Below are positions 30,001 to 36,000 of a DNA stretch of 64,000 bases, in pieces. This DNA comes from an uncultured Gammaproteobacteria bacterium (GTDB lineage: Bacteria > Pseudomonadota > Gammaproteobacteria > JABCZS01), in the NCBI GenBank assembly GCA_963798975.1, contig CAWCVU010000004.1, positions 88,912 to 152,911 of the forward strand, given 5' to 3'. The position numbers were made by a program. Positions within the stretch are counted from its first letter, which is position 1. Each line of letters begins with the position of its first letter.

Positions 30001-33000
30001 CAAACCACCATAAGGAAAATAATGAAATAAACAAAAAAGTAATTTCATAAAATTACGCTTGCTCTCTTAAAACACGCGGCAAAGCAAATTCCATATTTTC
30101 AATCGCGCCGGTAATCTCGATAATCTGATCTTCTGCGCCCCATTCTTTTAAACGCGCGATGATTTGTTGCACCAATACTTCAGGTGCCGAAGCACCGGCT
30201 GTGATCCCGATGTTATTTTTATTTTCTAGCCAAGTTTTTTGCAATAAATCAGGGGAATCTAATAAATAAGCGGGTGTGCCTAAATGCTCGGCCAATTCAC
30301 GTAAACGATTGGAGTTAGAGCTATTTTCTGAGCCTACCACCAGTAAGACATCGCTCATGGTTGCTAATTTACGCACCGCATCTTGACGATTTTGCGTCGC
30401 GTAACAAATATCATCATGTTTAGGCCCTTGAATATGTGGGAAACGTTTATATAAAGCAGCAATAATGACTTGCGTTTCATCCACCGATAAAGTGGTTTGA
30501 GTCACAAAATGTAAATGTTCCGGATCACGCACGGTTAATCCCGCCACATCCGCACTATTTTCTACCAAATACATTTTGCCCTTATCTGCGGGATAATGGC
30601 CCATGGTGCCTATGACTTCAGGATGCCCTGCATGGCCAATTAATATACATTCATGTCCGGCACGCGCAGCGCGCACGACTTCCATATGCACTTTAGTGAC
30701 CAGAGGACAGGTCGCATCGATAATGGTTAAATCACGGGTCTTGCCTTCATCATGAACTTGTTTAGCTACGCCGTGGGCACTAAAAATAACGATGGAACCA
30801 TCAGGTGCATCAGAAAGCTCTTTAACAAATACGGCGCCTTCGGCCTCTAAACTTTTAACCACAAAGCGGTTATGGACAATTTGATGCCGTACATAAACAG
30901 GCGCACCAAAGAGCACTAAAGCACGTTTTACAATTTCAATCGCCCTATCAACACCGGCACAAAAGCCACGAGGGTTAGCAAGTAAGATTTTCATGAGGCT
31001 ATTTTACCATAGAAATAGCCTTTCCCTCTTGTTTTTTTCATAAGACCTCTTTATGATTCGCTCATCAGATTGTTTTAACAAAAGGATTTAATTGCATGAA
31101 CACTATCTCTCGTAAAGTTTTTCTAGGTTCTTTAACCTTCATGGCCTCTAATTTTGCTCTTGCACAAGAAATAGCAACCGCGCCTCAACTAGAGGGTGGC
31201 CTTACTGCTTCTATCGGTACTTTCTATGTTGTGCCTTCTACCGATGACACTGGTTATTTGTTACTTCATGATGCCACTGGCACGGTCAATCAAATAGATA
31301 TTCTGAGTAATAACAACGATTTTGAATTTGGTTATGAAGCTTCATTAGGTTATATTTTTGAAGACACAGCCAATGGCATCGAGTTGTTTTACCGAGGTTA
31401 TGATCACAGTAATACTTCGGGTCCCAACAATGGCGTTTTTGATATCTCAGGTACCACCATTAACAACATGTTAAACACCTTAGATACCGAATTAAATGCC
31501 GTTGACTTAATGATAAGTCAATACCTGGATATCGGCACGCATATGCAGCTGCGTATAAGTGGTGGTGTTTCTTATGCTGATATTCAGCAAGAACAAAGTT
31601 TTTCTGGTGATATTGTGGATGGTAGTGGTATTGTTACAGATACTTTTGCTGCATCAGAAAAAAGCAAGTTTACAGGTTGGGGACCTCGTCTAGCTATGGA
31701 TGGTCGCTATGATTTTGGTGAAGATATTGCTGGTTTTGGGATCGTGGGTGGGGCTTCTTTAGCCTATTACCTAGGTGATACTGATTTAACTGCGAAGGGT
31801 GCTAGTACCTCAGTATCACCTGCTGCCAATAAACCTGTTGAGGTCACTCAAAACCTTAATAATCATGCTATAACCAATTTAAGAGGTAATTTAGGTATCG
31901 ACTATGTTTATTTCTTTGATAACGATGAGCAGTCAACTTTAGGTCTTGAGCTTGGTTATATGGTTGACTATTATGCTGATGCCGTTTCAAACTATAGTAA
32001 TGTGGCAGCCATTGCCAGCACATCTTCAGAAAACTCGTCGCCTGTAGCAACACTGAACTCCACTACCGGTCCTCTGACCTTCAGCGGTCCTTATGTGGAA
32101 TTAAAGGGTGTGTTCTAAACCCTGTGCTGTAATAAAATCAAAGGGACACAGTGTGTCCCTTTTTTTTGGCCCTAGGTCGCTACTTAGTCATTTATCTCAA
32201 GCTTCATTATTTTAACCCGATACAACAAGCAATATCGCCCATTTGGGTACTAACAATAAGGAAAATAATGATGAAAATAAAAAATATTTATTTAGGATCT
32301 TTAACTTCACTAGCTATTATGGCTACATCTGTAGCGCATGCTGAAGAAATGGTTACTGCTCCTTCACTAGAAGGCGGTTTTAGCGGTATGCTCGGGGGAT
32401 TTTTATTTACACCTAGCGTTAACAATAAAGCTTATGCTGTTAATCGTAATATTGATGCTGATAATAATGTGCTTAACAGCTCTACTGCTAATAATAATGC
32501 TAATTATGATACGGGCTGGCAAGCTGCTATTGGTTATGTGTTTGATGACACAGCCAACGGTATTGAGCTTTCATACCGTAGCTTTGATGGTTCTAACAAC
32601 GCAGGCCCAGCAGGTCCATTTGAGACTAATTTCAATGATGATGGCTTCTTTACCGGACGCGGGTTTGGTGCGCAAACGGATGGCACCAACAGCAACCAAG
32701 ATAACCAATATCAAAATTGGGATTTAATGGCCAGCCAATTTTTAGACATTGGTACCCATATGCAAATGCGTTTTATGGGCGGTGTTTCTTATCTAATGGA
32801 TTTGGATCAAACCACTAAACTAAATACTGATGTGAATGGATATGCTTATGCTTATACAAATATTCCTAAACATAAAGAAATTAATTTAAAAGGTGATCTC
32901 GATGTTTATGAACAAATCAAAAGTGAATACAGCGGTTGGGGCCCACGCGTGGCAACCGATGCACGCTATGATTTCGGCGAAATGATTGATGGTTTTGGTA

Positions 33001-36000
33001 TCGTGGGTGGCGCTTCTTTGGGTTATTACTTAGGTAAACAAGAAAGCACAAGCACACTCAGTTTCGGCGCTGATGGCTGTTTGAGCAATCATCATATTGG
33101 TGATGAATGTAATGGTTTTCCTATTGAGGGTTCTGCAGGTGCACGCGCAGAAGATAATAGTGATAGTCATGCGGTTACTAACTTAAGAGCCAATTTAGGT
33201 ATCGATTACGTGTATTACTTTGATAACGATGCGATGTCTACCTTGGGCTTAGAATTAGGTTATGAAGTGGATACTTACTTTGATGGCGTGGCGACTATTA
33301 GTGCCTTAGGTGGTGATACTGATGTAACTGACGTTACTTTCAGCGGTCCTTACTTAAATCTCAAAGGTGTGTTCTAAAAGTTAATACCTGTTTGGTATGA
33401 ATCAAAAGGGGCATCATGCCCCTTTTTGATTTTTTCTTTATCTGCGCTAAGTTGCAATCACAACAAATATAATATAAATTAAGTTGATATATCAATTTCT
33501 TCTTTCCATTGAACATTAAACTAAGGATAGTCATTATGCAAACCAAACATTTTTATTTAGCTTCTTTAACACCACTAGTGCTCGTGGCTTCTTCACTGTC
33601 TTATGCGGACCAACCTGTCAATGTACCTACTTTAGAAGGTGGACCCACTGCTTCTATAACAGCCTGGTATGCCGTTACTTCTGCAGGCAATGAAAATTAT
33701 GGGTTTAGTGGTAATCACGAAGATGATGCTAATTCCGTATTAAATGTAACACCTGAATATAACTTTGGTGTGGATGCGTCTTTAGGTTATATCTTTGAAG
33801 ATACCGCCAATAGCATCGAACTTTTATATCGCTATCAAGATACCAACAACTCTGATACCGATGAGGGTAATTTAGGCCATGAAGGAGCGGGAGAATTACA
33901 CAGCGAACTCGGTTATGAACTCAATTCTTTTGACCTTGTAATTGGTCAAATTATTGAAGTAGGTGAAAGTATGGATATGCGCTTTACCGGTGGTCTTGCC
34001 TATGTAGAAATTGATGAATCACAACATACTTCATTTCATGAAGAATTAGATTACATAGAACATAGCGCTGAAATTGATGAAAAAAGTCATTTTTCCGGTT
34101 GGGGCCCACGCGTAGGTATTGATGCACGTTATGACTTTGGCACGGGTGTTGGCATTGTGGGTGGTGGCTCTGTAGCCTACGTTTTAGGTGATCTAGATAC
34201 CAGTGAAAGTTTAACGCAAACACATCACCACCACACTGAAGATGAGCTTATAAAAAATGATATCGATAACCACGCAGTTACCAACCTAAGAGGCAATTTG
34301 GGTGTTGATTATGTTTATTTTTTTGATAATGAAGAACGTTCTACGATGGGTATAGAATTAGGTTACCAAGTCGATTACTATTCCGATGCCTTGGGCACAG
34401 TGGGCAGTGCAGAACATCCAGATATTGATACTTTTGCTCTTACTTTTAGCGGACCTTACCTCACTGTAAAAGGCGCGCTCTAAGTTTTATTCATCATACT
34501 AAGGAAAGTAATCATGCAAGTAAGAAATATTTATTTAGGTTGTTTAACACCTTTAGTGCTTATCGCAGTTAGCACTGCGCAGGCACAGATCGTCACTGTT
34601 CCTACTTTTGAAGGCGGTTTTTTTACTGCTTCTGTGGGCACATGGTATGCAACTCCATCTGCAGAAAATGAAGCCTATGGTGTTCAACACACAGATGACT
34701 CCACTTCTATCTTAAATATAACGCCCGATTATCATTTTGGTGCATTGGCTTCCGTCAGCTATATGTTTAGAGAAACTGCGAATGATATTGAACTGTCTTA
34801 TGTTCATTTTAATAGTTCTGACTCTGATTCTATTGATAATCCAACCGAAGCTCATCGTCTACACAGCACTTTGAAATATGAACTAGATTCACTTGATTTA
34901 ATGATTAGCCAATTTATTAATCTCGGTAGGCATATGCAGGTTCGTTTTAGTGCAGGTTTAGCTTATGTAGAATTGGAGCAGCAACAAAATAATTATTTAC
35001 ATGAAGAAGATGCTTTTGGCAAAACAGATCTGTTAGACCAAAGGAATGAGTATATGGGTTGGGGGCCGCGTTTGGCCATAGACTCACGTTATGATTTCGG
35101 TCAAGGTTTTGGTATTATAGGTGGCGGTTCTGTTGCCTATTTTACGGGTGATTTAGATGTAACCACCACTCAAAATAATGAAATGAACAGCACAACCAAC
35201 GATCTCGATGATCACGCAATCACTAACTTACGTGGCAATTTGGGTGTAGATTATATTTATTATTTTAATAATGATGATCGCTCCACTATCGGCCTAGAGT
35301 TGGGTTATCAAGCAGATTATTATGCCGATGCGATAAGCACCCTTGAGACCATTGACGGCACTGACATAGATAGTCTTTCACTGACGTTTAGCGGTCCTTA
35401 TTTAAATATCAAGGCTAAGTTGTAAGTTCAAAATCCCTGGCCTACGACCGGGGATTTTTTTAGGTGCGTTACGCCAATATAGCAAGCACTTCTTCTAATT
35501 CACTAATAATCTGTTTGGCTGGCAATGATTCATTGCGTGGGGTAAGTTGTTTGCGGGCACCTGAGATGGTAAAACCTTGTTCATACAATAAAGTGCTGAT
35601 TTGACGCACCAGTTCAACATCTTCACGAATATAATAACGACGATTGCCCCGACGTTTACTGGGGCGTAATTCAGTAAATTCTTGTTCCCAATAACGTAAC
35701 ACATGAGGTTTAACGCCACATAAACTACTGACTTCACTGATGGTAAAATAACGCTTTTGCGGAATTTCAGGCAGCACGCTACTCGTCATCATTAATGCCC
35801 TGTTGTTGCTTAATGTGAGCCGTTTGTTCTTCTACTTTTGCCTTGAGCTTTTGTCCAGCACGGAAAGTCACCACACGACGTTTAGTAATTGGAATTTCTT
35901 CCCCGGTTTTAGGGTTACGTCCTGGACGCTCACCCTTATCACGCAAAGTAAAATTACCAAACCCAGACAATTTAACATGCTGGCCTTGTTCTAAGTAAGC

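Follow-up and report, generated by a model that had tools for sequence, protein, structure and literature searches.

The window analysed here is a stretch of 64,000 nucleotides on contig CAWCVU010000004.1 of assembly GCA_963798975.1, from an uncultured gammaproteobacterium. Between ispH and a MerR-family regulator gene with ihfA, it carries a tandem array of four diverged genes for barrel proteins of the Legionella major outer-membrane protein (MOMP) type, which we call P1 to P4. They are listed with their lengths in amino acids (aa) and the E-value of their match to Pfam Legionella_OMP.

31096-32118, + strand: P1, 340 aa, E 7.8e-38; surface loops rich in Ser/Thr.
32268-33377, + strand: P2, 369 aa from MMKIK, E 2.1e-31; longest loops, rich in Asn/Gly, with a Cys pair in loop 4.
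33536-34483, + strand: P3, 315 aa, E 2.6e-38; loops acidic and His-rich, with HHHH in loop 4.
34514-35425, + strand: P4, 303 aa, E 3.8e-42; shortest loops; starts 30 nt past P3.

As the initial annotation of this DNA had proposed, these are four intact paralogs on the same strand, each with its own ribosome-binding site and signal sequence. An AAGGA site lies 7-11 nt 5' of each ATG, and by inspection each N-terminus is signal-like, with a basic and a hydrophobic segment closing in AxA. The four products align over their full length with pairwise identities of 44-53% and 83 invariant columns. Every strand-like block listed in the annotation is found in this alignment, and the 31 positions that are invariant across the family are all present in P1-P4. 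Cys is nearly absent, the pair in P2 being the only one.

Fold of the proteins and location of the variation

In a Pfam search, P1-P4 match PF05150 (Legionella_OMP) with 109-145 bits, more than 80 bits over the gathering score of 25.4 bits, and they cover the profile from positions 1-19 to 278-280 of 281. Their closest database relatives, all from metagenome-assembled genomes (MAGs) of uncultured Legionellales or Gammaproteobacteria, bear the NCBI name 'Lpg1974 family pore-forming outer membrane protein'. AlphaFold2 models of P4 and P2, made as single chains from a 52-sequence alignment, both have ten long strands and a small hairpin within loop 1. The predicted local distance difference test score (pLDDT) is 89.4 for P4, with a predicted template-modelling score of 0.83, and the pLDDT is 84.2 for P2. 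The top Foldseek match of the P4 model is PDB 9nh1 (E 8e-17, template-modelling scores 0.74/0.86), with the 10-stranded OmpT, Pla and OpcA next, and homology to 9nh1 is also found at the sequence level (E 4e-14). This entry shows 'porin I' in situ. The protein, the MOMP Lpg2961 of L. pneumophila, forms 10-stranded barrels that stand as trimers around the Dot/Icm system (PMC12501162). The two checks that had been proposed for the family, a hidden Markov model search and structure prediction, gave Legionella_OMP matches and a 10-stranded barrel. With the NCBI name and the fold match to Lpg2961, they bear out the assignment to a Legionella-MOMP-type porin family.

The four region classes used to locate the variation were cut from the P4 model. 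The membrane core comprises the 11 residues per strand adjoining the short turns, and these turns, four in number and on the termini side, form a second class; strand extensions and loop tips are the other two. The mean pairwise identities of the classes are given below.

Membrane core: 0.61 among the four paralogs, 0.69 among 52 family members.
Short turns: 0.64 among the four paralogs, 0.57 among 52 family members.
Strand extensions: 0.35 among the four paralogs, 0.35 among 52 family members.
Loop tips: 0.21 among the four paralogs, 0.17 among 52 family members.

Variation is concentrated in five long hairpins opposite the termini, at their tips and extensions. This end of the barrel accounts for 82 of the 86 residues in the length range among P1-P4, and the added length of P2 appears in its model as taller hairpins. 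The idea that diversification is focused on the loops is therefore upheld, since core and short turns are conserved, and the models place the variable regions away from the turns on the presumed periplasmic side. As a general rule, both termini and the short turns of outer-membrane barrels are periplasmic. Because of this rule and the homology to the in situ structure, the long-hairpin end is read as the probable extracellular end.

Residue counts agree with the loop compositions noted earlier. The surface of P1 is rich in Ser/Thr, that of P2 is 24% Asn+Gly and holds two Cys, and that of P3 is 22% Asp+Glu and 9% His, including the HHHH motif. P4 has an acidic surface and the shortest one, with 140 aa compared with 152-202 in the other three. 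All four surfaces are strongly negative, with net charges of -15 to -32.

Synonymous divergence (dS) among P1-P4 is saturated (>1.1), so the genes are old. The ratio of nonsynonymous divergence (dN) to dS in the core is 0.12-0.24 despite this saturation, which means that every copy has been under long purifying selection. Surface dN is 2-4.5 times core dN. The ratios do not demonstrate positive selection in the loops: saturated dS makes them unreliable among P1-P4, and surface dN/dS is <1 even in younger pairs.

Gene conversion was assessed with a GENECONV-style test, based on the longest run of concordant polymorphic sites and 5000 column shuffles, for all sites and for silent sites. No tract was significant in any of the six pairs among P1-P4, at polymorphic or at silent sites (all p > 0.06, uncorrected), nor between P2 and the related genes U1 and U2 of a second array (described below) at silent sites. 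The check that had been suggested for conversion within the array thus gave a negative answer. A 17-mer, GGTTGGGGCCCACGCGT, had been put forward as DNA common to paralogs 2 and 3 that could support conversion. It is indeed present at both sites as an exact match (32934 in P2 and 34097 in P3), but it is not evidence of conversion because it codes for the invariant GWGPRV motif.

The C-termini differ among the four proteins. P1 and P2 end in KGVF, P3 in KGAL (34472-34483) and P4 in KAKL (35414-35425). Across the 52 family members the last residue is Phe in 46, Trp in 2, Tyr in 1, Ile in 1 and Leu in 2.

Likely transcription units and boundaries of the array

Terminator hairpins, each trailed by a U-run, follow P1, P2 and P4.

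32140-32170, + strand: intrinsic terminator 3' of P1, with a 10-bp stem and U8; -14.8 kcal/mol, z -3.6.
33399-33440, + strand: intrinsic terminator 3' of P2; -18.3 kcal/mol, z -5.1.
35430-35461, unstranded: terminator hairpin 3' of P4, with an 11-bp stem and U7; -14.8 kcal/mol, z -2.8; common to P4 and the convergent MerR-family gene.

The 30-nt spacer between P3 and P4 holds no hairpin (fold energy -1.6 kcal/mol). These energies match the initial annotation, which had placed terminators after paralogs 1, 2 and 4 and none between 3 and 4. Because hairpins follow P1, P2 and P4 only, the arrangement suggests three likely transcription units, namely P1, P2 and P3-P4. P3 and P4, 30 nt apart and with no terminator between them, are probably co-transcribed. 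An Rfam scan of the region gave nothing over threshold; its two weak matches both fall on the P2 terminator.

The array is bounded by conserved genes, for which identities to the sister species G001 are given.

30053-30994, - strand: ispH, which forms the conserved left boundary; identity to G001 88%.
35469-36108, - strand: MerR-family regulator gene and ihfA, which form the conserved right boundary; identity to G001 85% and 93%, respectively.
35469-35792, - strand: MerR-family gene, an open reading frame converging on P4.

Beyond the right boundary, 3' of ihfA, pheT (36112-38162) is broken into several open reading frames.

The array is not an artefact of MAG assembly, because independent per-run assemblies recover the locus. 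They cover window positions 27735-36595 and differ from the MAG at only two sites; the Logan contig L029 has 100% identity to the window up to 36595. One of the two differences lies in a homopolymer.

32279-32284, + strand: run of six A (A6) within P2 codons 4-6; one independent assembly reads A5 here.

The MAG and L030 (run ERR12035940) have A6 at this site. The Logan contig L031 (run ERR11561019) has A5, with which the P2 frame stops after 8 codons. Sequencing error, strain polymorphism and slippage are all possible causes. The other difference, also between the MAG and L031, is A>G at window position 31288, which gives N65D in loop 1 of P1, a predicted surface loop. The overlap spans ~8.9 kb, and both differences in it sit in porin genes.

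Ancestry of the array

The assembly (2.16 Mb, 74% complete) holds 11 family members. Three of them, U1-U3, form a second tandem array (G000:C4:57012-60530; G000 is the genome of the window) about 60 kb upstream of P1-P4 and 28 kb outside the window on that side. Each of these genes has its own terminator, and the U1-U2 and U2-U3 spacers are near-identical. A truncated copy lies elsewhere in the genome (C6:153113-153805).

In the tree, P1 groups with gene 1 of the syntenic G001 array (L012 gene 1; support 96/93), P2 forms a clade with U1 and U2 (100/99), and P3 and P4 are sister genes (97/95). Two alternative placements were tried. Grouping P3 with clade B (G001 gene 2) was rejected (p-AU 0.018), and grouping P4 with clade C (G001 gene 3) was permitted but not preferred (p-AU 0.16). 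P2 is 76% (BLASTP) to 81% (trimmed columns) identical to U1/U2, with dS ~0.7, and its homology to U2 spans from ~20 nt 5' of the ATG to 8 nt 3' of the stop codon. By these groupings, three lineages (P1; P2; P3/P4) make up the array. A single array diversified in place, as the initial annotation had implied, does not describe it, since P2 comes from the clade of the second array.

Species differ in how many copies adjoin ispH: four in G000, three in G001, at least two in G003, one in G005 and none in G004. In other genera of the host family no porin copies adjoin ispH. Across the genus, genomes carry 5-14 family copies. Between G000 and G001 the best porin ortholog pair is ~55% identical, compared with 88% for IspH, 93% for IhfA and 85% for MerR. 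Relatives contain a gene split by a frameshift (L026 464-1412), a 120-aa fragment heading a five-gene array (L028 926-1285), and adjacent porin genes whose mature parts are identical and whose N-termini differ (L028 2425-4568); porin pairs among them range from identical to mosaic. Split gene, fragment, identical-to-mosaic pairs and copy-number changes together indicate birth-and-death evolution.

The genes U1 and U2 are themselves a mosaic. Their DNA is 100% identical over up to 311 nt, and only 43-68% identical in three patches, which fall in loops 2, 3 and 4. In the patches dN is 0.46 and dS 0.49; elsewhere dN is 0 and dS 0.075. This pattern fits a recent homogenisation of the barrel by gene conversion, with the loops retained. 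Exact-sequence look-ups found the mosaic in no other contigs; it is seen in the MAG contig only.

A glycosyltransferase gene adjoining ispH (28936-30048) is 60% identical to its G001 ortholog, compared with 85-93% for IspH, IhfA and MerR. Judged from this comparison, it is a second, putatively envelope-related gene at the locus that is evolving fast.

Interpretation and known systems

We consider it very probable that P1-P4 are four functional genes for major outer-membrane barrels of the Legionella MOMP/Lpg1974 family, arranged in three units, differing in variable surface hairpins and forming a birth-and-death array. Each product would be exported by means of its Sec signal peptide and would fold into a 10-stranded barrel, in which the membrane core and the short turns on the termini side are conserved and the five long hairpins at the predicted surface carry nearly all differences. 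From three units a cell could express up to four isoforms, which would place different, strongly acidic surfaces on one scaffold. We suggest that such isoforms may act as pores that differ in pore-mouth or surface properties, and that they may differ in recognition by hosts, phages and predators. The array would have grown by birth and death in a hot spot bounded by ispH and merR-ihfA, with P1 ancestral to at least two species, P2 derived from the lineage of the second array, and P3 and P4 from an old local duplication.

Several observations weigh against this interpretation. With dS saturated, the loops show faster change only, and positive selection is not demonstrable. P2 is frameshifted in one assembly (L031). 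A simple scan for the sigma-70 consensus found no strong + strand promoter 5' of P1, P2 or P3. The proposed membrane orientation is argued from how outer-membrane barrels are generally placed and from the homologous in situ structure. P3 and P4 are the only two of the 52 family members to end in Leu, the last residue being aromatic in 49 of the 52.

The main role of the proteins might be structural or adhesive, and not that of diffusion pores, with the barrels tethered to peptidoglycan, stabilising the envelope, placed around Dot/Icm, or binding hosts. In L. pneumophila, LD-transpeptidases tether MOMPs covalently to peptidoglycan (PMC11841132), and Lpg2961 trimers ring the outer-membrane core of Dot/Icm (PMC12501162). 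The nearest folds after 9nh1 (OmpT, Pla and OpcA) are 10-stranded proteases and adhesins with narrow lumens, and the lineage carries DotH/IcmK. However, structural and adhesive roles are compatible with pore function, 'pore-forming' is an experimentally based family name, and the predicted mature N-termini of P1-P4 (Q, E, D and Q) are putative tether sites. We regard a mainly structural or adhesive role as unlikely.

The Dot/Icm evidence also bears on the host. DotH/IcmK is present in 11 of the 12 genomes of the host family, which fits a Legionella-like, host-associated life. A Pfam search for DotA found no match, but it found none in the control genomes either and is uninformative. In the genome of the window dotH/icmK is broken by a frame change and one TAA (G000:C11:18281-18941); it is intact in all five congeners. 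We take the host to be an uncultured Legionellales-like bacterium with a Dot/Icm system.

A programmed system of surface variation, working by ON/OFF slippage in the A-run of P2 or by conversion between the two arrays, would draw on the A5/A6 difference that stops the P2 frame after 8 codons, on the location of both assembly differences in porin genes (the other being N65D in P1 loop 1), and on the U1/U2 mosaic of identical barrel DNA and divergent loop patches (dS 0.49 versus 0.075). Yet six nucleotides make a short run by the standards of contingency loci, no significant conversion tracts were found among P1-P4, nor between P2 and U1/U2 in the silent-site test, the genes P1-P4 are old with saturated dS, and the mosaic is known from the MAG contig only. 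We consider such programming improbable. In its fullest form, both arrays would be one working variation system, in which the barrel is homogenised, three loop cassettes are kept distinct, copies move and the P2 A-run switches. We give this form little credence; if it were true, the porin surfaces that protist hosts or phages meet on free-living populations would keep changing. Finally, the idea that most copies are redundant or decaying and that one porin alone works is highly improbable: it could cite the birth and death seen in relatives (the split gene in L026 and the fragment in L028), the truncated copy in the same genome and the unusual C-terminal Leu of P3 and P4, but the four open reading frames are intact with ribosome-binding sites and signal peptides, the core of every copy has been under long purifying selection, and P1-P4 keep all 31 family-invariant positions.

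Four working barrel genes in a tandem array, the interpretation that we prefer, would place the locus next to a known case. In L. pneumophila, lpg2960 adjoins two ~99% identical tandem mompS copies (lpg2961), and lpg1974 lies elsewhere (PMC5042515). That cluster and the present array share the family PF05150, the 10-stranded barrel and a Dot/Icm-bearing host. In both genomes there are same-strand tandem paralogs, both diverged (~50%) and near-identical, and more copies elsewhere. The two also differ. The identity of P1-P4 to Lpg2961 is only ~22-25%; the window's genome has four diverged genes and a nearby three-gene array, with 11 copies in ~2.2 Mb; the flanks here are ispH and merR-ihfA; and the loops are longer and strongly acidic. 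Lpg2961 trimerises, whereas P1-P4 are known here from genes and single-chain models and may form trimers as well. Given this cluster in L. pneumophila, the array belongs to a known kind. It exceeds the L. pneumophila type case in size and dynamics without differing in kind.

The P1 porin of Coxiella burnetii (CBU0311), also named in the initial annotation, is presumably of the same Legionellales major-porin type by family membership. The OMP-1/P28/Msp2 genes of Anaplasmataceae are alike in outline: they are tandem same-strand barrel genes, carried by intracellular bacteria, in which the strands are conserved and the surface loops hypervariable. They belong to a family other than PF05150, and documented examples of differential expression and of conversion into an expression site exist for them, whereas no conversion tract was found among P1-P4.

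The array is a well-documented case for a family whose first structure dates from 2025 only. It is a clear but ordinary example that opens no new question and is of use for annotation and for the study of envelope evolution in Legionellales. In this uncultured sister lineage, tandem MOMP arrays are bigger and more dynamic, with 5-14 copies per ~2 Mb genome and 0-4 at one syntenic site, and the barrel end predicted to face outward evolves much faster than the housekeeping genes alongside.

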